This document shows positions 1 through 42,222 of a stretch of 64,000 bases of DNA, piece by piece. Below the pieces are notes generated by a model. That model worked only from the letters and a program-made list of their open reading frames with translations. It was not told the DNA's origin and made no database searches. Origin of the DNA: Candidatus Collierbacteria bacterium UBA2277 (GTDB taxonomy: Bacteria > Patescibacteriota > Microgenomatia > UBA1400 > MFAQ01); NCBI GenBank assembly GCA_002347045.1, contig DDWV01000001.1, forward strand, positions 419,844 to 483,843, read 5' to 3'. The translations under genes and the position numbers were made by a program. Numbering within the stretch: the first letter of the stretch is position 1; each line of letters starts with the position of its first letter.

Positions 1-240
1 GCGTGGGCGGGCGCGCGGGCGACTACCACGAAAACGGGCGGGGAATCCCTTTCTGTTGTCTGTTATAACGAAATTCGAACTTATTTTCGGGACCATTACT
101 AATCTATTGGCTCACCGCTCCACACCTCGTGTCTCGCGGTTCGCCACCGACTCTGCCGTAACATCGGTTCGGACGATGGCTACCGCAGTAGCCATGACAG
201 AAAACGCAAAAATTAAAAAATTTCCTATAGTATTTTGATT
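1..240 (+). repeat. GC-rich structured mosaic repeat, copy 1 (modules A+B+C); extends upstream beyond window start
   Basis: Nucleotide identity of ~60-100 nt blocks with 2636-2830 (+) and 8860-8960 (minus strand); GC-rich and hairpin-rich in an AT-rich genome; ends in shared motif TGACAGAAAACGCAAAAAT...CCTATAG; spurious ORF 56..238 shares only nucleotide-level identity with ORF 8733..8954. Confidence 0.6.
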
Positions 241-387
241 TACACAAAAACCCTGAGAAACTAAGTCTATATATTTAACATTATTTAAATAATATCTTCT
301 CTAATATTGATATGTCTGTGGTGTTTTGCAGTACTTTCAAATAGTGTTTCTTTGACTATCTTCATCTTTTAAGTGCAAAAAGACATG

Positions 388-417
388 TTGACATGAGTAT
401 CAAGTTAGCGTTATATT
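388..417 (+). promoter_or_regulatory. sigma70-like promoter (TTGACA-N18-TATATT), probably giving a leaderless transcript for the 426 CDS
   Basis: TTGACA at 388-393, TATATT at 412-417, ATG at 426 only ~8 nt downstream, no SD. Confidence 0.4.
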
Positions 418-425
418 AGAATTAT

Positions 426-1232
426 ATGGAAGACAAAGAAAAACAACCAAAAGTTTCATCTGTAGTAGACGGAGACAAGAAAAAAAGAACGCTAAATACT
501 TTTCCAAGAATACCGATCAGTAAAGTGCTGGATTTGGCTAAAACTATTTACGAACTAGGTGAAGGAGATCCAGTTCCTAGACTAGTGGTGTTTGATAAAC
601 TTGGAAAGTCTCCAGAAAGCGGACCAAGTAGAATGTTGATTACCACATCAAATTCGTACGGACTTACTACTGGTAGTTATGTAGCAGAGAGACTTGGCAT
701 CACTGAATTAGGAAAGTCAATCGTTTCAAAAGATGGTAGTCAACGCCGAGATGAAATAGTTAGGGCACTTCTCACGAACGATTTATTTTCAAGGTTTCAC
801 GAAAAATACTCTGCTAAGGGAATACCAACCGAACCGATTGGAGAAGACTATTTAAAACAAGTGGGGAGTCTAAGCGGAGCTGATGCAAAAGTAGCCTTTT
901 CCGTCTTTATGGAGAACATGAAAGATCATGGTTTCATCCGTGAATTATCTGGTCGACCAACGATTCTACCAATTGGAATGATGGAATTGAAAGATGAAGT
1001 TAAAAAAAATGATGAGCAAACTCCAAAAGTTGAAATGGCATTCATTGCAGAAAACATAAAGAGCGAGAAAACACCAAAACCAGATCAGACAACGCCTCTT
1101 GTCTCACCGGCAATTGTTCCTCAATTTAATTTTAATATCCAAGTTCAAATACCAGACAATTCCACAGCTGAGACTTATGATGCAATTTTTAAAAGCATTG
1201 CAGATAATCTTCTGAAGATTAATAGTAAATAA
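426..1232 (+). CDS. hypothetical protein (268 aa), first gene of a coupled pair
   Basis: Long ORF; stop overlaps start of next ORF (TAATG); no recognisable motifs. Confidence 0.6.
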   Translation: MEDKEKQPKVSSVVDGDKKKRTLNTFPRIPISKVLDLAKTIYELGEGDPVPRLVVFDKLGKSPESGPSRMLITTSNSYGLTTGSYVAERLGITELGKSIVSKDGSQRRDEIVRALLTNDLFSRFHEKYSAKGIPTEPIGEDYLKQVGSLSGADAKVAFSVFMENMKDHGFIRELSGRPTILPIGMMELKDEVKKNDEQTPKVEMAFIAENIKSEKTPKPDQTTPLVSPAIVPQFNFNIQVQIPDNSTAETYDAIFKSIADNLLKINSK

Positions 1233-1819
1233 TGCCTGGTGATATATTAATACAGCTTTTGAGACAGGCTACAGAAAGTAGTCATCTGTCACGTCAAGGA
1301 GTGTCAAACCTGACATTGCAGCCTGAATCATCGAGTGGAAAAGAAAACCTCTCGACTAATTACTATCTCAATCAGCAAATCTATAGTGCATTGTGTGGAC
1401 TGTCTGACACCTTAGCAAATAGCTACAGACAGATCGTTAGAGATTTTGAAGACTCAGAGCGTACTGCATGGACTGGAACCGCCCACGATATTAGAGAACT
1501 TTTACGTCTTATTCTTGAAAAATTAGCACCAACAGATAAAGTCGTGAATATGTCATGGTACAAACAGGAAAAAGATAATACTGGTCCCACCCAGAAACAA
1601 AGGGTCAAATACATACTTTCCGAAATTAATGCTGACTCTAAAGAACAGGAAGTAGTACAAAATATCGACATCATTGAAGATAGGATTGGGAATTTGGTAA
1701 GGAAAGTATATGGAAGAGCTAGTGATTCGGCTCACAGGACAAAGGGCAAGACTGAAGCGTTCAAAATTCTACGATATTTTGAGGCTTTTGCGTATGACCT
1801 TTTAGACCTAAAACAATAG
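1232..1819 (+). CDS. hypothetical protein (195 aa) with C-terminal Rx5H (HEPN-like) motif RASDSAH
   Basis: ORF translationally coupled to upstream gene; Rx4-6H motif near C-terminus is only suggestive. Confidence 0.5.
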   Translation: MPGDILIQLLRQATESSHLSRQGVSNLTLQPESSSGKENLSTNYYLNQQIYSALCGLSDTLANSYRQIVRDFEDSERTAWTGTAHDIRELLRLILEKLAPTDKVVNMSWYKQEKDNTGPTQKQRVKYILSEINADSKEQEVVQNIDIIEDRIGNLVRKVYGRASDSAHRTKGKTEAFKILRYFEAFAYDLLDLKQ

Positions 1820-1834
1820 AGGTAGAATACTTTT

Positions 1835-1969
1835 ATGGCAGCAAATAAAAGACTAACCCAACTTCCTTCAACGTTCTTTTGGCTAACTATCGTCACTGCA
1901 GTTTTAGCTGGAGTTCAAGTACTAACAGCTATACTTCAAATTATTAAACCGATGTTAAGTTCCACTTAA
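1835..1969 (+). CDS. small hydrophobic peptide (44 aa, single predicted TM; holin- or toxin-like)
   Basis: Own translation MAANKRLTQLPSTFFWLTIVTAVLAGVQVLTAILQIIKPMLSST*; AGAGG ~12 nt upstream; fills the gap between flanking genes; below ORF-track cutoff. Confidence 0.3.
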   Translation: MAANKRLTQLPSTFFWLTIVTAVLAGVQVLTAILQIIKPMLSST

Positions 1970-1973
1970 TACT

Positions 1974-2630
1974 ATGAAATGGTCTGAAAATAAAGGGAAA
2001 ATTTCAGAATTGTATTCTTCTGGAGTTTCGATGAGTGAAATAAGGAAACAATTCCCCATGAGATACAGTAGAAAAATGCTGACTTATCTAAAAGACCGAA
2101 ATATTGCAAAAAAACTAAAAAATGGCGATATTGTAAGTGAAAATGAAATAGCTGATGTCAGAAACAAACGTTTAATGGATAGCGTGCTATTTGAACATAT
2201 TGAGAAAATCAAGAGCCTATATTCAGAAGGACTATCCGCAAGTGAAATAAAGGAGATAATTAGGGTGCCGATCTCCGTCCGAAGTATTCAAAGGTATATT
2301 GGATTACTTGGGATGTCGAGAACAGTAGGAGACGCATTTAGACTTGCAAATTCCAGAGGTAGGATTGACAGGAGCCACTTAATAAAGGAAAGGAAAGCTG
2401 GAGAATTTAGAAAATCCATAAGCACAAAAACAAGATATTTTGTGCTTAATAGAGATAACTTTAGCTGTGTTGATTGTGGATTTACAGCTAAGGACGGAAA
2501 ACTGCTAGACATGGATCATATTATTAGGCCTGAGGATGGTGGTGATAATTCTATTGATAATTTAGTTACCCGTTGTCGCGAGTGCAATATTGGCAGATAT
2601 CTGATTGAACAAAAACACAAAAAAGTATAA
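1974..2630 (+). CDS. HNH endonuclease with N-terminal tandem HTH-like (NUMOD-like) DNA-binding repeats; homing-endonuclease-like
   Basis: C-terminal CVDCG...DHIIRPEDGG...NLVTRCRECN HNH motif; two N-terminal repeats (ISELYSSGVSMSEIRK / IKSLYSEGLSASEIKE). Confidence 0.7.
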   Translation: MKWSENKGKISELYSSGVSMSEIRKQFPMRYSRKMLTYLKDRNIAKKLKNGDIVSENEIADVRNKRLMDSVLFEHIEKIKSLYSEGLSASEIKEIIRVPISVRSIQRYIGLLGMSRTVGDAFRLANSRGRIDRSHLIKERKAGEFRKSISTKTRYFVLNRDNFSCVDCGFTAKDGKLLDMDHIIRPEDGGDNSIDNLVTRCRECNIGRYLIEQKHKKV

Positions 2631-2635
2631 TCCTG

Positions 2636-2830
2636 TTGCCTGCGAAGCGAGCACTTTGGCCGGCAGACAGGTCAACACTTCGTGTCTCGCGGTTCGCCAC
2701 CGCCTGCTCCCGCCGCAGTGGGACCGGATCAACATCGGTTCGGACGATGGCTACTCAGTAGCCATGACAGAAAACGCAAAAATTTGTATATACCTATAGT
2801 AACAACTCAATAAGGTTGACTAGGTGTAAA
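2636..2830 (+). repeat. GC-rich structured mosaic repeat, copy 2 (modules D+B+C)
   Basis: Shares CGTGTCTCGCGGTTCGCCACCG and AACATCGGTTCGGACGATGGCTAC..CAGTAGCCATGACAGAAAACGCAAAAAT with copy 1; 5' part (GCCTGCGAAGCGAGCACTTTGGCCGGCAG) matches 8541-8575. Confidence 0.6.
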
Positions 2831-2839
2831 ATATAGATT

Positions 2840-3526
2840 ATGGAAATAATAGGTTGGATTTTATTTTTGGTCTTTGGAGGGTACATTTGGGACCGCTTAA
2901 TGTCAATGGCTTCAGACCAAATAAATATATCCCAACTAGGTAGTATCCGAGTACCTAAACTATTTTTGAAACTAGCGAATATTTCTAAATATGAGAAAGA
3001 GGAAATACTTTACAAAGATTTAGGAAAGTCTGAAATAAAAAAGATCGATGAGATCGTCGAGAAGTTTCATAAAGTATCAAACATAACGCTCACGTATTTA
3101 CGTCATCAGAATCTTATCCATGTTTCTTCAGGAACTAAATCATCCTTTTTTCAAACCGACAAGTGGTACAAAACATTGTATTCCGAAGAGATAATGAGAC
3201 AAGATGAGGACAATTATCTTGCGTTCGGAATTTACAGAAGAAAAGGTGGAATTTCCAAATCTCCTGTATTGGTGGGATACTTGAAAATGGAAAATGAAAT
3301 AGGTGTAAACGAAAAAAATGAATACGAGGTTGTTTTTGAGTTTCCAGAAAAACTAATTAACAAGGGGTTCTTAACAGGGACTTTAGAAAAGAAATTTGAT
3401 CTAAAAAAGGAGGTTATTGCCGATTATTGGGATAAAAATGAATTTGGTGACCCAGATGAAATTTACTACACTATTTATAACCAAGAAGGAAAATATCCTG
3501 TAAATTTCCAGTTTAGATTTATTTAA
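2840..3526 (+). CDS. hypothetical protein (228 aa), N-terminal TM helix
   Basis: ORF only. Confidence 0.5.
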   Translation: MEIIGWILFLVFGGYIWDRLMSMASDQINISQLGSIRVPKLFLKLANISKYEKEEILYKDLGKSEIKKIDEIVEKFHKVSNITLTYLRHQNLIHVSSGTKSSFFQTDKWYKTLYSEEIMRQDEDNYLAFGIYRRKGGISKSPVLVGYLKMENEIGVNEKNEYEVVFEFPEKLINKGFLTGTLEKKFDLKKEVIADYWDKNEFGDPDEIYYTIYNQEGKYPVNFQFRFI

Positions 3527-3539
3527 TCAGAAACCCAGA

Positions 3540-3893
3540 CTACTTTTTTATTAGATGTTTCGTGTTATTTTCGATAGAATCCATCTTCTCTACTAGCTCA
3601 TCAAACCTCTCAGAAAGATCCTCATTTTGGGATCGTAATCCATATATTAGCACCAAGCAAGAGACCATTACTGCGAAGAATACTACGAACAGTGAATCCA
3701 TACCCATCCATTCGGTCAGCACATACCACAGGATTGAAGACCCAATTAGTGGCCAAAATAGCGCATTGATAACCTCAAGCCCTTGATTTAGTGATTCTTT
3801 TATATTCATATTGGTATTATATATCCTCAAAAAAACCGATCTGCTTGTCCACATATTAAGTTTTCTACAGTGATCAAAACATGTTAATCCCAT
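3540..3893 (-). CDS. small membrane protein (117 aa)
   Basis: ORF with two hydrophobic segments; overlaps end of 3874..4719 by 20 nt. Confidence 0.4.
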   Translation of the reverse strand: MGLTCFDHCRKLNMWTSRSVFLRIYNTNMNIKESLNQGLEVINALFWPLIGSSILWYVLTEWMGMDSLFVVFFAVMVSCLVLIYGLRSQNEDLSERFDELVEKMDSIENNTKHLIKK

Positions 3894-4719
3894 ATTTTAA
3901 TATCGATATATTATTGATTCCACCAACGAAAGCTTTATGCAAGTTAAAACATAAAGTGTGGTAATTCAAATAATAAAGATAAAAATCGGATACATTGACT
4001 CCCGACTCTAGAAATTCCATGTCGCGGTAGTTAGCTTTTATTCGATACCAATATAAAAACTCCCACAGGTTTAAATCTGTACTCGTTAGGAAATTAGTAT
4101 TATTAGCTCCTGTGAGGCGTTTTATATTTCTTCTTCTCTTAAAATCGTCTTTTTTGTAATCCAAAATCTTTTTAATTACTTGCCTGTATCTGGTCCTTGG
4201 ATCGGGATTTCCGATTACGATATTACTTCCCGACGGTATCATCCAAGATGAAGTTCTGGTCGCTGGAATAATTGAATTAAAATATGGCTCATTAAAAATG
4301 ATTTCATTGTTTCTTATTAATTCTTTAAGCCTGTGGTTTACAGCTTCATGTGTATTACTTAACCAACTAATATCATCATCGATTAGCCATTCTAGAATAA
4401 GGAGAAGATTGAAGAAGAGGTAATAACTTTTAACAGGAATCCACGAACTACATATTTGTGCGTAGTCCCTAAACTGATTGATTTGATCCATTTCAGAATC
4501 AATATTTTTCATAACTAACTTTGTAAGTCCGACCTTTTTTGTGACTTGAACTGGGACAGTATTTGAAATAGCAGAAAAATGTGCGGGAATGTTAATTGTC
4601 AGACCTCCAGAAATACCACTAATAAAGTTAAGGTAATTGGAGTGTGTGGTAAATTCTGCGTTTACAACTGGGGTAGATCCCACTGTCCTCCAACCAGAAC
4701 CGAGGTATGTTGCCGGCAT
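3874..4719 (-). CDS. hypothetical protein (281 aa)
   Basis: ORF; start codon overlaps the peptidase stop (4719); same operon as the ATP-grasp genes. Confidence 0.55.
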   Translation of the reverse strand: MPATYLGSGWRTVGSTPVVNAEFTTHSNYLNFISGISGGLTINIPAHFSAISNTVPVQVTKKVGLTKLVMKNIDSEMDQINQFRDYAQICSSWIPVKSYYLFFNLLLILEWLIDDDISWLSNTHEAVNHRLKELIRNNEIIFNEPYFNSIIPATRTSSWMIPSGSNIVIGNPDPRTRYRQVIKKILDYKKDDFKRRRNIKRLTGANNTNFLTSTDLNLWEFLYWYRIKANYRDMEFLESGVNVSDFYLYYLNYHTLCFNLHKAFVGGINNISILKYGINMF

Positions 4720-5228
4720 TATTTATAAACCGCGATCATTTGGCGAATGACCATGTCTTCCCATTTTTCGATATGGTCTGAGGTGAAGTCAAACCAAACT
4801 CGGATAAAATCTTCTTTGAGAAGCTTTCTCATTCTGCCAACTTCTGGATCTTGGAGATATATATTTTCCTCGTCCAAACCAACTACCACAGAATAGTGGC
4901 CGTCTGCTAAGTCATCTTCGTCGTAATCAGCCCTGCCTCTCGTCATCCAGTTCACAATTACAGGTGCTTTTTTGCCCAAAGCAACTTGGATGTCCTCAAA
5001 AGATGCAAAATTCTTTATTTCAACTTTTAGTCCTTCTCCTTCTAGTGTCCTTTTTATATCTTCGTCGCCAATTCCCAGATCATCGTCCTTGTTGGAAAGA
5101 ATAGCCACTTCAGCCTCGGTTTTATCGATGCCATAAAAATCCAAGACCATTTTAATGACGGCTGGGCCACAAAAACTACCATGTAGTGTTTCTTGAAAAG
5201 GTTTGACGGGAAGTAAGTTAGTATCCAT
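4719..5228 (-). CDS. papain-like cysteine peptidase, C39-like (Peptidase_C39_2/BtrH-like)
   Basis: N-terminal SFCGPAV catalytic Cys context and later DGHYSVVVG His context, ~170 aa size typical of C39-like domains. Confidence 0.55.
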   Translation of the reverse strand: MDTNLLPVKPFQETLHGSFCGPAVIKMVLDFYGIDKTEAEVAILSNKDDDLGIGDEDIKRTLEGEGLKVEIKNFASFEDIQVALGKKAPVIVNWMTRGRADYDEDDLADGHYSVVVGLDEENIYLQDPEVGRMRKLLKEDFIRVWFDFTSDHIEKWEDMVIRQMIAVYK

Positions 5229-5240
5229 GCGTATATTGTA

Positions 5241-6533
5241 CTATGTTAAGAGATTTTTCAGTTCTTCAGCAATATTTGTGGCTATTCCCAGATCATTCCC
5301 TATTGCCACATAACCCAAGATATGGTCAGTTTCATTAATTAAAGTGATAATGATTCCCTTTTTACTATCTTTTGAGTATATAAGGGTTGATACCCGAGAT
5401 AATAGCTCCCCGATTGATTTAATATCATCAATGTATTCAAAATGGTCGTTTGAGATAAAAGAGTGGTTTTGAAAATCGGCACCAAAAAGTCTTTTAGCGA
5501 GATCGTAAACATGCGTGCCACCTGTTCTGCGCGCATTTGTTTCTACGGCAAATATTTCTCCTGTTTTGGAAATTACATAATCAATATCAAAAATACCTTG
5601 ATAGCCCAGAGACTGGAAATGTTTTCCTATTACCAGAGCGGATTCTTCTAGCTTCTTTGCAATATCAAGAGGAATAGATCCATTGCCGACAACTGTTCCC
5701 TGAAACTCACCATTGATGACAATCTGTCCACAGAGATAGGTGATTTTTACTTCTGATTCCGTAACAAACAATTCAGCTGAAGGTGTTCCACCACCCACTG
5801 TCGCATCAACATCAATAAGTTCCTCAATAATATACGGCCCATTTGACCAAATTGTCTCAATAGTAACTTGGTTAATAAGAGAATCTGTTGTAGTCTGAGG
5901 ATCGTCAACTAAAATTAAACCCCATCCTGATTCTCCTTGATCGGCTTTGAGGGCGAAAGGTCGCTTGTTTGTTTTGAACCAATCGATTTTATTTTCTAGT
6001 TCCTCTATGGTTTGACAAATATAACCTTCAGGACAGCTAACGTTTAACTTTTCAACTTCTTTTCTAAACCCTGACTTTGAGTCCAAATATCTAATGAGAT
6101 CATACCCACCTTTTGATGGTTCGCCATCGACAAAGACATCTATTCCAATTTCTCTGGCTTTCTCGACTAATTCAAGAAAGCTTGATGTGATAGCATAAGG
6201 AGAAATAACAACATCTTTTTCACCAACTAATTCTTTGAAATTATATAAATCTATTGAATTTGAGAGATTTAATCCCCCATTCCTTGGAGAATAATTGCTG
6301 GTGTTTGAAAATTTCAAAATATTTGAATTGAGATCGAGAAGTTCTTCGGGGATTGAGAATGGGGTAACCACAATTTTATTGTCATCCTCCCAAAAGAAGG
6401 CTCTCTGAGAAAGGGCTAGCTCATGCCTGATCCTCTTTTGTCCTTCATCAGAACCACCGCTGGATACCAATATATCCTCAAAAGCTTCTGCTGTATTGGC
6501 GAATACAATGTTTATTGATTTTTCTGTTTCCAT
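5241..6533 (-). CDS. ATP-grasp domain ligase (carboxylate-amine ligase, biotin-carboxylase-like clade)
   Basis: C-terminal half with AVETNARRTGGTH (ExN.R ATP-grasp motif), 430 aa. Confidence 0.55.
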   Translation of the reverse strand: METEKSINIVFANTAEAFEDILVSSGGSDEGQKRIRHELALSQRAFFWEDDNKIVVTPFSIPEELLDLNSNILKFSNTSNYSPRNGGLNLSNSIDLYNFKELVGEKDVVISPYAITSSFLELVEKAREIGIDVFVDGEPSKGGYDLIRYLDSKSGFRKEVEKLNVSCPEGYICQTIEELENKIDWFKTNKRPFALKADQGESGWGLILVDDPQTTTDSLINQVTIETIWSNGPYIIEELIDVDATVGGGTPSAELFVTESEVKITYLCGQIVINGEFQGTVVGNGSIPLDIAKKLEESALVIGKHFQSLGYQGIFDIDYVISKTGEIFAVETNARRTGGTHVYDLAKRLFGADFQNHSFISNDHFEYIDDIKSIGELLSRVSTLIYSKDSKKGIIITLINETDHILGYVAIGNDLGIATNIAEELKNLLT

Positions 6534-6588
6534 TATCTTGATTTTAAATATAAAATACCCCCGACGCTATGTGCATCAGGGGTATATC

Positions 6589-7593
6589 TTAAACTAACTT
6601 TTCGCGACTGGCCGCTATGAGAATAATTCCCTCAATCAGATCTTCAAATCCTCGACCAGTGAAACTTGCCATCTTGGTCAAGGTATTATTTAATCCGTGA
6701 GAGTTTGGACCAATTCCAGGATTGTAATTGACTTCGAGTAGATAAATTTCTCCATCTGGGGTAACTCGGAAGTCCATTCGGGCATAATCACGGCACTCTG
6801 TAGCTCGAAAAGCGGTTTTTGTGAAATCAACCAGTTTTTCAATCACCGAACTTGGAAGATCTGCTCTGACCATCTTTTCCGTTTGCCCTCCCCATTTGTA
6901 CTCAAACGATCTGATTTTCAACAAATCATCTTGAGTATCGGGGAATTGAAACTCGAGCGGAGGAAGAACGATCAAGTTTGTGCCATTCCCAATTACGCCA
7001 ACCGAAATTTCTCGACCAACAATGAAAGACTCGACAATGGCCTGCTGGAAATAGTTAGAAATGATGTGGGCAACTTTGGCTCTCAACTCTGTTTCGTTTT
7101 TCACAACACAGTCTGCGTAAATTCCGATACTGCCTTCTTGCCGGATAGGTTTAACGATCGCCGGAAAGGAAATATTGGATTGGAGAACTTCGTCTGGACT
7201 ATCAAATCTTTGATATGGTGTAACAGGTACTCCATACCCCTGACAAACTAGTTTGCTTTTCTCTTTGTCCAAAGTTAGTTGCATATTCAAAGATGAAGCT
7301 CCTGTGAAAGGAATCCTCAGAGCTTCGAGCATAGCAGGGACAAGGGGTTCGTCTGTGTTTCCACCACCGAATGATTCAGCCATATTTAGAACAAGATCGA
7401 AAGTGCCGATCCGGCGGACAAGATCATTCCAGAGATTTTGAGTGGTTTCGAGGGTTTCGACCTCGTAGCCACGAGCCAGAAGCAATTCTTCGACAAGAGG
7501 GACAATAATTTCGATTTCGTGCTCACAGATGATATCTGAGGCCACTCCGACTCCAAGATCTCTAGCGACATTGTAAAGTACAAGGATTTTCAT
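6589..7593 (-). CDS. ddl: D-alanine--D-alanine ligase family ATP-grasp enzyme
   Basis: FGGGNTDEPLVPAMLEALRIPFTGASSLNMQLTLDK (Ddl N-domain pattern), AIVKPIRQEGSIGI, RMDFRVTPDGEIYLLEVNYNPG. Confidence 0.6.
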   Translation of the reverse strand: MKILVLYNVARDLGVGVASDIICEHEIEIIVPLVEELLLARGYEVETLETTQNLWNDLVRRIGTFDLVLNMAESFGGGNTDEPLVPAMLEALRIPFTGASSLNMQLTLDKEKSKLVCQGYGVPVTPYQRFDSPDEVLQSNISFPAIVKPIRQEGSIGIYADCVVKNETELRAKVAHIISNYFQQAIVESFIVGREISVGVIGNGTNLIVLPPLEFQFPDTQDDLLKIRSFEYKWGGQTEKMVRADLPSSVIEKLVDFTKTAFRATECRDYARMDFRVTPDGEIYLLEVNYNPGIGPNSHGLNNTLTKMASFTGRGFEDLIEGIILIAASREKLV

Positions 7594-7648
7594 AAATCCT
7601 CCTTTTTTATATATAGGATGATGTATTCTACACTATTTCCACCATCTT

Positions 7649-8533
7649 GTGCCTAGAATGTTTTTTGAATTATATTATCCAAGATCTCGATTTTTAGCTA
7701 TAATGCTAGGCATGGAAATGATGCATGGAGTTTTAACCTCTCTTTTTAAAATTGACACGGAAAAAGGTAAGGAAATCGGCTCAGCGTTTACGCCACTGTG
7801 CCATGAATTTAATCAATTTTTAGATCTACCGGCAGACAAAAAAGACATGCTTTTAGATCCGATTCTTTCTGTTATGAAAAAACTTGGAAGGATAGCAGAA
7901 GCAGTAGACCGATACGAAATCCTAGAAGAAGAGAAGATGGAAAATTTGATTAAACGAGCACAAAAAGACCAGAGTAGTGTTATCTTAAAACACGAAGACA
8001 GCTCAACCCAACTCGAAGGTGCGGTTGAAGACGTGATTAACAGTTCAAAGGCGGCTCTTGATGCGGCGGTGAAAATATTGAAACCATTATGGGGAATAAA
8101 TCTAACGACTTACGGTGATGCGGGTGAAAAGGTTGTAAAGGCTTTAAAAAGAAATATTCCTGATAAATTCCAACCTAACATAATCACGCTAGCTGAGGTT
8201 ATTCAGGAATGCTCTCCGTGGATACGGCTAATAAGAAACTTAAGGACAAAAACTGAACACCTGGGTGTAAATATAGTATCTCCTCTATCGGTGAGTATTA
8301 CTGACAAATTAGCTACAAAAGAATACCCTCTTGTTGACAAAAGTATACCTGCCAAAGAATTTGTAAACATTACATACAATAATATTTTCGTTTTTTTACA
8401 AGAATTCATTGTCTTATCTCTAGGATCAAGACTTTTATCAGGAATGATACCAGTCGTCGTAAGTGGTGAGGGGAAAAATCGAAAATTTGGCATAGCAATC
8501 AAAACTGTCGAGGCTCAAGACCCAAAAATCTGA
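7649..8533 (+). CDS. hypothetical protein (294 aa; alternative start at 7712 after a TATAAT at ~7699)
   Basis: ORF only; no recognisable domain. Confidence 0.5.
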   Translation: MPRMFFELYYPRSRFLAIMLGMEMMHGVLTSLFKIDTEKGKEIGSAFTPLCHEFNQFLDLPADKKDMLLDPILSVMKKLGRIAEAVDRYEILEEEKMENLIKRAQKDQSSVILKHEDSSTQLEGAVEDVINSSKAALDAAVKILKPLWGINLTTYGDAGEKVVKALKRNIPDKFQPNIITLAEVIQECSPWIRLIRNLRTKTEHLGVNIVSPLSVSITDKLATKEYPLVDKSIPAKEFVNITYNNIFVFLQEFIVLSLGSRLLSGMIPVVVSGEGKNRKFGIAIKTVEAQDPKI

Positions 8534-8534
8534 C

Positions 8535-8995
8535 TTAGTGCCTGCGAAGCAGGCACTTTGGCCGACAGGCCAATGCTGTCTCAAGGATTTAATACCCACT
8601 GATAAAATTTTCTCTTAATCAGTGGGTATTTATGGCGAGGAGATGCAATCTATATAGATTGCTTCGTCATTTCATTCCTCGCAATGACGATGTTCTTCCG
8701 AGCCATATATTGAGAAAGCTTCGCCACAATCACTAGATGTGATCTTGTGGCGAACATATAAGTGCGACAGCGATAGCTGGCACTTGCTCGCAAGAGCAAT
8801 CATCCCGACCGCAGTCGGGATACAATATTGGTATCGCGCGCAAGGGGTTCCGCCGGCAGGCGGTGGCGAACCGCGAGACACGAAGTGTTGAGCGGTGAGC
8901 CAATAGATTAGTAGTGGTCCCGAAAATAAGTTCGAATTTCGTTATAACAGACAACAGAAAGTGACAGAAAACGTAAAAAATAGGTTATGACCTAT
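8535..8995 (-). repeat. GC-rich structured mosaic repeat, copy 3 (composite: module D on + strand at left, modules B+A on minus strand at right, ~250 nt hairpin-rich unique core)
   Basis: 8541-8575 matches copy-2 5' part; 8860-8955 is the reverse complement of copy-1 5' part; 8960-8995 on + strand carries TGACAGAAAACGTAAAAAAT...CCTATAA end motif; several perfect hairpins (e.g. 8591-8628). Confidence 0.55.
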
Positions 8996-8998
8996 AAC

Positions 8999-9027
8999 TT
9001 GACTTATCGAGTGTGTCGGGGTATAAT
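8999..9027 (+). promoter_or_regulatory. consensus sigma70 promoter TTGACT-N17-TATAAT
   Basis: Exact -35/-10 hexamers with 17-nt spacer; followed by AGGAGG RBS and ATG at 9076. Confidence 0.6.
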
Positions 9028-9075: not shown

Positions 9076-9279
9076 ATGAGAGTAAAAGTACTATATGCAC
9101 TCCCCAGGGAGAGCATATCAGAGTATTGTGATAGGCTTGTTAAACAAGCAATACATCAAAACTCCACTGTATATGGAGTGTTTAATACAATTTCTTTTAT
9201 TGCTTGCCCGGACACAGCCCCAGAGTATCTAGAGGGGTACTATAGTGGTCGAATATATAGCCCGATGAATGAAAGGTAG
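9076..9279 (+). CDS. hypothetical small protein (67 aa)
   Basis: Strong promoter + AGGAGG SD 8 nt upstream of ATG. Confidence 0.5.
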   Translation: MRVKVLYALPRESISEYCDRLVKQAIHQNSTVYGVFNTISFIACPDTAPEYLEGYYSGRIYSPMNER

Positions 9280-19310: not shown

Positions 19311-19838
19311 TCAAAAAATGTCTTCAGGCGGCAGAAACTCTTCTCCGTTTGGAGCACTTTTGTACTCGACTTTTAACCACTCTATGTAGTCGCAGCCGGT
19401 AGCTTGTTTGGCCTCTCTATCCCAACCTGAGGTGGAGCACTTTTTCATTTTTTTACCATTTGCCGTGGTATAGAGAACTAGAGGTTCTCCACACTTGGGG
19501 CACTTTTCGTCGAGTTTTTCTGTTGTGCCGTTTATCCATTCAACATAGTCGCAACCTGTAGCTTTTTTCTCTTCCTTATCCCAGCCTCCGGCACTACATT
19601 TTTTCATCTTTTTGCCAAAGCGGGTGACTTGAAGAACTAGAGGTTCTCCACACTTTGGGCACTTTTCGTCGAGCACCTCAGGCTCTATTTCTAGCCATTT
19701 TACGTAATCACAGCCCTCTGTTTTGTGGGTTTCGGTGTTCCATACGCCCTTTGAACAGCGTTGGAGCTTACGACCAGTAGGTGTTTCAATTACTTCTGAT
19801 AAAGTTGATCCGCATTTGGGACATTTTTCTTCTTCCAT
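19311..19838 (-). CDS. protein composed of three tandem topoisomerase-type C4 zinc-ribbon modules
   Basis: Three repeats of CPKCGxxL(x11)GKKMKKCSxxGWDxExKxATGCDYxxW, similar to Topo I C-terminal Zn fingers; ~174-bp DNA repeats. Confidence 0.55.
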   Translation of the reverse strand: MEEEKCPKCGSTLSEVIETPTGRKLQRCSKGVWNTETHKTEGCDYVKWLEIEPEVLDEKCPKCGEPLVLQVTRFGKKMKKCSAGGWDKEEKKATGCDYVEWINGTTEKLDEKCPKCGEPLVLYTTANGKKMKKCSTSGWDREAKQATGCDYIEWLKVEYKSAPNGEEFLPPEDIF

Positions 19839-34947: not shown

Positions 34948-35290
34948 TAGGGGTACTCCCGGGTGCTGGTGAGGAACGCTCCTTCGAGTAATCGAAGGGG
35001 AGGAAAGTCCGGACAGCTAAAAGATAAGGTGACCAGGGAAACCTGGTTTTCCGCCAAGTGATTGGTGGAACGCGATAGGGCCACAGAGACGAATAAAGGT
35101 GAAACGCTCTTGGATACAAGAGATTTCTTAAGAGTAATTTTAAGAAAGTGGTAACCCGCCCTGCTGCAATCGACGAATTGGGATTAAGGTATCTTTTCCG
35201 CCCCAAAAGTCTCGAGCATTAGACAGATGTTCCTCCTTGACAGAATCCGGCTTACTATGACCTGGGAGTCCCGAAAGGGTTTCCGCCAAA
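34948..35290 (+). ncRNA. rnpB: RNase P RNA (bacterial type)
   Basis: GAGGAAAGTCCGGAC, GGTGAAACG, ACAGAATCCGGCTTA conserved blocks; P1 pairing GGTACTCCCGGG / CCTGGGAGTCC; TATAAT just upstream; ORFs 34860..35084 and 34928..35206 are spurious. Confidence 0.8.
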
Positions 35291-42084: not shown

Positions 42085-42155
42085 CGGGGTGTAGTATAAC
42101 GGTAGTATTTGCGCATGGGGTGCGCAAGGCTGGAGTTCAATTCTCCACACCCCGA
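42085..42155 (+). tRNA. tRNA-Pro (anticodon GGG), no encoded CCA
   Basis: Acceptor CGGGGTG/CACCCCG, D-arm GTAT/GTAT (two G-U wobble pairs) with GG loop, anticodon stem TGCGC/GCGCA loop ATGGGGT, T-arm TGGAG-TTCAATT-CTCCA. Confidence 0.6.
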
Positions 42156-42222
42156 CAATATAAATAGGCTAGTTTCAGGGATGTGCCCTTCGCTTGTGAT
42201 ATTTGTTGTGATAAGTTCTCCA

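Follow-up and report, generated by a model that had tools for sequence, protein, structure and literature searches.

A coupled gene pair encoding a pP_pnuc_1 protein and a tail-bearing partner, a candidate two-gene conflict module, carried on a serine-recombinase island of a Microgenomates bacterium

The Pfam family PF18165, pP_pnuc_1, is described as a 'predicted pPIWI-associating nuclease', and the family name derives from a genomic link to PIWI/Argonaute proteins. An Argonaute-linked HEPN RNase, Agap-HEPN (R262/H267), acts in defence (PMC11162769) and, set beside pP_pnuc_1 by description, would make an attractive relative of this family. In bAgaN, the characterised long-B Argonaute nuclease, an N-terminal helical switch is joined to a C-terminal PD-(D/E)XK DNase (PMC13535254, PMC10620215). 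In this study, we analysed a 64,000-nucleotide stretch of DNA from Candidatus Collierbacteria bacterium UBA2277 (assembly GCA_002347045.1, contig DDWV01000001.1, positions 419,844 to 483,843 of the forward strand), called the window below, which carries close to its start a gene for a 195-aa pP_pnuc_1 protein coupled to an upstream gene for a 268-aa partner. In contrast to what the family name suggests, pP_pnuc_1 is here a stand-alone chain of ~190–200 aa, always accompanied by a tail-bearing partner of the winged-helix or DUF5343 type, with no PIWI/Argonaute gene nearby. The bAgaN protein EcBPAN is conceptually alike, being an Argonaute-associated nuclease that is tethered and auto-inhibited by a helical domain, but the PD-(D/E)XK domain is absent here, and homology between pP_pnuc_1 and bAgaN was rejected after profile comparison with EcbAgaN (WP_250844864; supplement of PMC10620215), which gave an hhalign probability of 0.07%. 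We read the pair as a two-gene conflict module that is self-contained and spreads by horizontal transfer, because it recurs in non-syntenic contexts across phyla and exchanges its domains in a modular way; in our judgement this reading is evenly poised, and the specific mechanistic steps proposed below are held with less confidence than the reading as a whole. The original prediction, made from the sequence alone, had proposed a mobile defence, abortive-infection or toxin module of four genes; the coupled pair stays in place as a candidate conflict module, and the two genes behind it, for a small peptide and an HNH protein, drop out of it.

The four open reading frames (ORFs) of that proposal were recovered at their positions, all on the plus strand: 426–1232 (268 aa), 1232–1819 (195 aa), 1835–1969 (44 aa) and 1974–2630 (218 aa). 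The translational coupling proposed for the first two was borne out as well, the genes overlapping by one base in the sequence TAATG. The top promoter site within positions 1–3000 is a sigma-70-like promoter on the plus strand at 388..417 (TTGACA-18 nt-TATATT, 11/12 positions matched). A leaderless or near-leaderless mRNA for the pair, as had been suggested, is plausible from the sequence, because the 3′ end of this promoter is only 8 nt ahead of the first ATG, at 426.

The 195-aa protein (1232..1819, plus strand), which we propose as the effector and as a predicted HEPN-like nuclease, matches PF18165 over residues 61–169 (E 2.7e-15; 56.6 bits for a gathering cut-off of 26.3) and the PADLOC Aga_Nuclease model PDLC02413 (E 1.9e-13). 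Among 5.8 billion proteins searched, 53 relatives of 138–215 aa each were found, every one with PF18165; all 52 relatives (52/52) that were compared with both models matched PF18165 and Aga_Nuclease and, like the 195-aa protein itself, stand well above threshold and have the family motifs in common. These relatives share an A-H-x-x-R-E helix and an R-A-S-D-x-A-H-R motif, and an alignment of 52 homologues at 40–63% identity leaves H85, R88, R162 and H168 invariant. The string RASDSAH, which is R162-x5-H168, is to judge from this alignment a conserved R-x5-H motif rather than a chance string, because both R162 and H168 are invariant, and the constellation of an invariant H..R and Rx5H suggests an active site. 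No Piwi-family match was present in the Pfam calls of this locus and of nine other pP_pnuc_1 loci. A tblastn search of plasmids returned weak matches only (E 0.06–0.3), to hypothetical proteins, with Argonaute not nearby.

The likeness to HEPN toxins (HepT-MntA, RnlA/LsoA, AbiD/F, and the HEPN domains of Cas13 and Csm6) lies in an Rx4-6H-type motif, here R162-A-S-D-x-A-H168, between the last two long helices of a small all-helical fold, and in the position of the gene as the second in a two-gene operon of the conflict type; unlike in HepT-MntA, the partner is not an MNT nucleotidyltransferase. The AlphaFold2 (AF2) model of the 195-aa protein is all-helical (mean predicted local distance difference test, pLDDT, 83.8) and places Rx5H in the loop linking the last two long helices. 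Several results weigh against a HEPN-like effector acting in defence. The RASDSAH loop is the least confident stretch of the conserved core in this model; a Foldseek search of the PDB gave no match at E<=0.001 (best E 0.38), with HEPN structures (YutE 1ylm, sacsin 3o10, RnlA 7aex and HepT 6m6u) appearing only as insignificant matches (E 1.3–2.8, template modelling (TM) score <=0.40; for RnlA 7aex, query TM 0.40); no HEPN Pfam family was found up to E 10 among the matches of the 52 relatives; the profile of the 195-aa family matched no PDB sequence; no relatives of the pair occur in viral contigs (IMG/VR); and a full-text literature search found no paper on pP_pnuc_1/PF18165, DUF5343/PF17278 or PDC-M34. 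A structural search of BFVD with the 195-aa model also gave no match. The HEPN-like motif seen in the original prediction thus holds up as a motif, invariant in the 52 homologues, but a profile link or significant fold link to HEPN families did not emerge.

The same results bear on an alternative in which the 195-aa protein, instead of being a nuclease, serves as a helical adaptor or as a regulatory subunit, the pair forms a transcription-factor complex or a non-toxic regulator, and the name of PF18165 is misleading. Such a role would account for an all-helical AF2 model and for the lack of any structural or profile link to a nuclease fold, and EcbAgaN provides a precedent in that its helical N-terminus is only a switch, so that a helical domain associated with Argonaute need not be catalytic (PMC13535254). 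However, EcbAgaN is unlike pP_pnuc_1 in the profile comparison given above, which makes the analogy a conceptual one only; the invariance of H..R and Rx5H in 52 sequences at 40–63% identity suggests an active site; and the exchange of this protein for a TIR-like domain, described below, argues for a toxic effector at that position. We consider the non-nuclease alternative unlikely.

The 268-aa partner (426..1232, plus strand) is a proposed nucleic-acid sensor or regulator and adaptor, on the basis of its AF2 model, Foldseek matches and the conservation of its tail. It matched no Pfam family, and its profile found nothing meaningful among PDB sequences. The model (pLDDT 82.5) comprises two winged-helix-like domains within residues ~26–182, a disordered linker at ~185–230 and a C-terminal tail of one strand and one helix at 232–262, with the motif PQFNFNIQV..P.N.T.ETYDAIFKS.A..LL. 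The best Foldseek matches were the FokI recognition domain, winged-helix domains 2–4 of SelB (WH2-4) and BrxA (prob 0.96–0.97, E ~0.06–0.1). At an identity of 10–15%, the N-terminal region is thus like FokI (prob 0.97) and BrxA (7zge, TM 0.40/0.51, prob 0.96); unlike in BREX and FokI systems, the pair has neither BREX nor restriction genes linked to it. We take this region, from the model, as a predicted tandem winged helix, an assignment to a fold class and not to a family. The structure predictions that had been proposed as a check on the two proteins have given no significant fold match for the 195-aa protein and, at weak E values, the tandem winged-helix class for the 268-aa protein. The latter has 61 close relatives, and its profile gathered 3338 cluster representatives at E<=1e-3 and 282 at E<=1e-30 from 1.84 billion proteins.

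The two genes travel together. In 9/9 independent gene-called loci (from a metagenome-assembled genome (MAG) of Saccharibacteria, MAGs of Chloroflexia and Anaerolineae, and several metagenome contigs), the partner gene lies directly upstream of the pP_pnuc_1 gene in the same orientation and is separated from it, or overlaps it, by <=11 nt, and the genes around the pair differ from locus to locus, with no shared synteny. An ORF scan of all fetched loci, for partners ending in PQFNFNIQV.LPENA.PETYDAIF.S...HLL, placed a tail-bearing partner upstream of the RASD.AHR protein in 12/15 cases. Ten loci were found in a one-genome-per-species scan, in Saccharibacteria, Methylococcaceae, Chloroflexota and Gemmatimonadales; overall, the pair is spread over at least five lineages (Saccharibacteria, Microgenomates, Chloroflexota, Gemmatimonadales and Methylococcaceae). 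This spread is patchy, as is typically seen with genes that move horizontally. The pair thus recurs, tightly coupled, in other genomes, but the company of phage-defence genes that the original prediction had looked for is often missing: many neighbourhoods consist of housekeeping genes and are not defence islands, which counts against a role in defence. In 3/9 independent loci, a small kinase gene of the Zeta_toxin/AAA_33-like type is found no more than a few kb away from the pair (L004 3794–4456, L006 6972–7490 and L010 10993–11727); this could be a coincidence or a loose association.

In several loci a DUF5343 (PF17278) partner replaces the winged-helix partner and carries the same C-terminal tail, the tails of DUF5343 partners aligning with the 268-aa tail at hhalign E values of 2.9e-9 and 5.5e-16. 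Because it is retained when DUF5343 replaces the N-terminal domain, the tail, not the N-terminal domain, is by these alignments the part that travels with pP_pnuc_1. The tail is also what connects the pair with PDC-M34, a PADLOC system that is itself a candidate only: PDC-M34A matches the 268-aa tail (E 1.8e-7, profile positions 151–207 of 208) and was matched by 51/60 relatives of the 268-aa protein, through the tail only. The likeness is confined to 57/208 profile positions; the N-terminal domains differ, and PDC-M34B, the model for the second gene, was unmatched in the 52 relatives of the 195-aa protein. Because no relative matches PDC-M34B, the pair is not PDC-M34 as defined. A scan with PADLOC models, another check that had been proposed, thus produced partial matches to candidate models (Aga_Nuclease, and PDC-M34A through the tail), but not PDC-M34 as a complete system.

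The N-terminal domain of the partner also occurs in a second context. In 6/60 relatives of the 268-aa protein, and again in 6/10 longer representatives tested, this domain is fused to a region matching PADLOC model PDLC00733 ('Effector, TIR'), which takes the place of the linker and tail (L011 6001–7173 and L012; proteins P0108–P0113, P0178, P0209, P0245, P0255, P0256 and P0259). The fusion proteins are ~380–490 aa long; their N-terminal domain is 36% identical to residues 1–192 of the 268-aa protein, and the invariant residues of their C-terminal domain include D293, S295, N298, N300 and E304 in ...ADLSFHNPNVFYELA... One fusion, with no pP_pnuc_1 gene, is flanked by a PycTM gene, a pair of N6_N4 methyltransferase and ResIII genes, and a helicase gene, a neighbourhood that is a defence-island setting. 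The TIR label comes from one PADLOC model, and searches of Pfam and of PDB sequences lent it no support, a point against the exchange of effectors that we propose; we write 'TIR-like' because these searches do not back the assignment. When PDB sequences were searched with profiles of the two families and of the TIR-like fusion proteins, the only matches were two HypA chains (E 0.006), which we judged to be due to chance. Many abortive-infection systems are built so that a given sensor is joined to different toxic effectors and a given effector to different sensors, and it is mainly because the domain swapping seen here resembles this architecture that we infer a sensor function for the partner and an effector function for pP_pnuc_1.

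The exchange of domains also bears on a second alternative, in which the pair is a type II toxin-antitoxin system: the winged-helix protein would act as the antitoxin, repressing its own promoter and using its tail to neutralise a pP_pnuc_1 toxin, and the module would stabilise the island that carries it, with no sensing of phage. The layout is the standard one for such systems, with tightly coupled genes in this order, their own promoter, and an upstream protein that combines a DNA-binding fold at the N-terminus with a binding motif at a disordered C-terminus; the pair is found elsewhere as isolated single copies amid housekeeping genes, and here it sits on a mobile island. However, an upstream protein of ~230–270 aa with two domains is large for an antitoxin, its N-terminal domain is found fused to a TIR-like effector where no toxin gene is present, which better fits a sensor, and 18 related islands persist without the pair. 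On this evidence we regard a plain toxin-antitoxin system as rather doubtful, though somewhat less so than the non-nuclease alternative.

Our working model for the conflict module is as follows. The pair is translationally coupled and probably transcribed from its own near-leaderless promoter. The tandem winged helix of the 268-aa protein would bind nucleic acid, and the ~40-aa conserved tail would dock onto the 195-aa pP_pnuc_1 protein and restrain it. When the winged-helix domains sense a trigger, presumed to be foreign nucleic acid, the effector would be set free or switched on and would inflict damage on RNA or DNA through its H/R and Rx5H residues. The outcome might be growth arrest, abortive infection, or an addiction of the toxin-antitoxin type. 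The sequence comparisons show family membership, the conservation and coupling of the pair, its modular exchange of domains and its island setting; binding of the tail to the effector, nuclease activity, the nature of the trigger and a defence phenotype are the parts of this model that we infer.

The two genes that follow the pair belong to something else. The 44-aa ORF (1835..1969, plus strand) is preceded by GAGGT 9 nt upstream, contains one hydrophobic segment at residues ~14–36 and stops 4 nt ahead of the start of the HNH gene. The membrane peptide of the original prediction is thus there as an ORF with a hydrophobic segment, but it does not stand as a conserved gene, being called solely in contigs of the same organism. 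The 218-aa helix-turn-helix (HTH)-HNH protein (1974..2630, plus strand) has a zinc-finger HNH domain of the form CxxC...DH...N...CxxC at residues 165–205 (PF01844, E 2.9e-9; HNH_5 PF14279, E 1.8e-6), in agreement with its earlier description as an HNH endonuclease. This region resembles IscB/Cas9-type and phage HNH families, with an IscB-type HNH match at E 2e-11, under the cut-off, and PHROG HNH families to E 1.5e-14. The N-terminus has two HTH-like repeats, with sub-threshold matches to GcrA, HTH_7 and Clr5 at residues 74–97. These repeats had been called NUMOD-like, a label that was not confirmed: no NUMOD family was found in the protein at E<=1 in Pfam, where only the weak matches of the GcrA/HTH_7 type appear. 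A phage homing endonuclease is likewise an unsupported, if possible, reading, there being no NUMOD domain, no relatives in IMG/VR, and only four homologues among the 5.8 billion proteins searched, all on Microgenomates-type contigs. In two other HNH loci, with quite different neighbourhoods, a small protein with a hydrophobic segment (95 aa and 184 aa) lies upstream of the HNH gene at a gap of 3–7 nt. The small hydrophobic peptide and the HNH gene are therefore a second, independent coupled pair, because the HNH homologues elsewhere follow their own small hydrophobic-segment protein. In another Microgenomates genome, the HNH homologue is 58% identical and is surrounded by unannotated genes and adjoined by a gene for a 780-aa AAA_13/SMC_N ATPase; this stretch (L023 3215–5557 and the genes around it) is possibly another variable or defence region.

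That the four genes might nevertheless act jointly, the first pair sensing, the 44-aa peptide serving as membrane toxin and the HNH protein degrading DNA or homing the cassette between repeats, is suggested by their arrangement: they are co-linear, closely spaced, on one strand and between two direct copies of a repeat, and the second of these, the chimeric extra copy B described below, is found only here, which is compatible with capture as one block. However, none of the other loci examined has the HNH gene or the peptide beside the pair, the HNH homologues elsewhere have their own upstream small hydrophobic-segment protein, NUMOD domains and viral relatives are lacking, and no empty-site or excised form was recovered. 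Because of the first of these results, the four genes are two independent pairs and not the single functional unit first proposed; a joint function appears to us very improbable, far more so than either of the alternatives weighed above.

Both pairs are cargo on a large-serine-recombinase island inserted at the 3′ end of a tRNA-Gln gene, so that the mobile setting first supposed proved correct. The window begins inside this island. Just upstream, in the coordinates of locus L001 (in which 8760–8815 corresponds to window 1–45), lie the tRNA-Gln gene (7083–7155) and, on the minus strand at 7003–8652, the gene of a large serine recombinase with Resolvase (E 2.4e-20), Recombinase (3.1e-15) and Zn-ribbon (2.1e-9) domains. 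The recombinase ORF runs across the junction into the antisense of tRNA-Gln, which the heptamer CAGAAAG directly follows, and the gene is flanked by a ~60-nt inverted repeat (L001 7155–7215 and 8760–8815); this 2.2-kb stretch is without any gene call in the JGI annotation. CAGAAAG stands at the tRNA end, at window ~50 (inverted) and at ~8955, and two arms of 107 nt, at 46–152 and 8858–8964, are 95% complementary. From the tRNA to ~8964, the island measures roughly 10.6 kb. In its Resolvase-Recombinase-Zn-ribbon protein beside a tRNA, its short CAGAAAG core and its variable cargo it is like other large-serine-recombinase islands; unlike the known ones, it has 107-nt inverted arms, an inverted repeat around the recombinase and a covarying end element of 360–500 nt, and we know of no described equivalent.

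Three copies of a structured repeat mark the island. Copy A (46..229, plus strand) is an S-type, recombinase-proximal module in which the 107-nt arm (46–152) is followed by two hairpins (160–194), TGACAGAAAACGCAAAAATT and finally CCTATAG, the last element before the cargo. Copy B (2637..2799, plus strand) is a chimeric internal copy, made of a reverse-complemented L-type 3′ hairpin (2637–2666), a 23-mer block (2680–2702) and an S-type tail (2731–2784) that is 100% identical, in two blocks, to 160–214. Copy C (8539..8996, minus strand) is the inverted, distal L-type end module, running from 8956 down to 8539, with the CAGAAAG junction and a TGACAGAAAACGTAAAAAAT flank outside it. Copies A and B are direct and GC-rich, and the four genes together with one repeat form a directly repeated unit of 2570 bp. 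The original prediction had seen these repeats as brackets of the gene unit; the flanking copies at 46–229 and 2637–2799 are indeed there, but they are not specific to the unit, being conserved ends of the ~10.6-kb island. The repeats gave no Rfam match, either at gathering thresholds or at E<=5, and ARAGORN found no tRNA or transfer-messenger RNA (tmRNA) in them. Integron attC sites were considered but dismissed, because the repeats lack a GTTRRRY core and the recombinase is of the serine and not the tyrosine type.

The 23-mer common to the three copies occurs exactly in 53 metagenome contigs, in two forms, S-type and L-type, that share their first ~107 nt. In 17 other loci, the S-type module and a 79–95% identical recombinase gene are divergently oriented, the module lying upstream at a distance of ~245 nt and being followed by unrelated AT-rich cargo. 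The S-type module and the ~245-nt region that separates it from the recombinase are highly conserved in many groundwater-type contigs (e.g., L035, L074, L072 and L077), and this region holds, before the recombinase start, an inverted copy of GACAGAAAACGCAAAAA. Because the sequence after CCTATAG differs from contig to contig, this site looks like the entry point for cargo. The genes for the 268-aa, 195-aa and HNH proteins, and an adjacent gene for a 228-aa protein, were absent from 18 other recombinase-bearing loci (recombinase identity 78–95% in 16 and 53–56% in three). Because these loci lack them, the four genes are strain-specific cargo directly behind the S module. No excised, circular or empty-site form was recovered among the contigs; two short contigs, L002 (2636 nt) and L003, were considered as a circular cassette and rejected, because they end inside repeats and so represent assembly breaks.

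The distal end of the island is an L-type element (window 8539–8956, minus strand) whose ends, TGTTGTCTGTTATAACG ... GCCTGCTTCGCAGGCA, are sharp and whose hairpin insertions vary. Twenty-four distinct L-type copies of 359–497 nt were collected, with relatives in L027–L079. Their alignment has 86 predicted pairs with 96.9% of cells paired, and compensatory changes fall in 17/86 pairs, compared with 9.3±1.3 in shuffles (0/500) and 0–3 in slid controls; several G-U pairs speak for the strand read from the island end towards its interior. There was no match in Rfam. From its sequence covariation, the element could be a structured RNA or a recombination site of folded DNA.

Other features of the island and window were noted. 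A cluster on the minus strand at 3874–7593 encodes a 281-aa protein, a C39-like peptidase (169 aa), a 430-aa ATP-grasp-like protein and a D-Ala-D-Ala-ligase-like ATP-grasp protein (334 aa); it recurs beside the L-type element in L077, L065 and L076, the peptidase alone in ~10 loci. The cluster is possibly a graspetide-like cassette for peptide modification, carried by these islands as semi-conserved cargo. Just outside the right end of the island, a perfect TTGACT-17-TATAAT promoter-like site at 8999–9027 lies upstream of an ORF starting at 9078, and integration may leave this chromosomal promoter intact. Further along, a 175-aa protein (19311–19838, minus strand) is built of three ~53-aa repeats of the zinc-ribbon-like form CPKCG...C...GC, which explains a 159-nt direct repeat at 19474/19633. 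An RNase P class A RNA (34959–35269, 112.9 bits) and a tRNA-Pro(GGG) gene (42085–42156) are ordinary housekeeping RNAs and bear out that this is a bacterial chromosome, which the HNH homologues assign to the Microgenomates group.

The components described here are catalogued, as Pfam families and PADLOC candidates, yet uncharacterised. We found no earlier description of the Argonaute-independent pairing of pP_pnuc_1, of the portable tail of its partner or of the way in which this arrangement alternates with TIR-like fusions. Taken at its broadest, the picture would be that of a winged-helix sensor with interchangeable effectors, either a TIR-like fusion or a tail-recruited pP_pnuc_1, in which pP_pnuc_1 forms a new, very divergent, Argonaute-free clade of HEPN-like RNases, carried in this case on undescribed serine-recombinase islands of candidate phyla radiation (CPR) bacteria that encode at their distal end a ~400-nt structured RNA missing from Rfam; we put this forward as a tentative possibility, with clearly less conviction than the conflict-module reading itself.

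For the family, pP_pnuc_1, hitherto a bioinformatic 'Argonaute-associated nuclease', appears here as a stand-alone, Argonaute-free effector with an obligate partner, in thousands of genomes, and gains a simple two-gene test system. As a possible docking motif, the tail could connect varied sensors to one effector, which would be useful for dissecting or engineering defence systems. The island scaffold, with its recombinase and structured end modules, makes such mobile elements and their cargo easy to find in CPR metagenomes. To our knowledge, few defence systems are known in small-genome episymbionts such as Saccharibacteria and Microgenomates, and the presence of the pair in both groups bears on how CPR bacteria may defend themselves.

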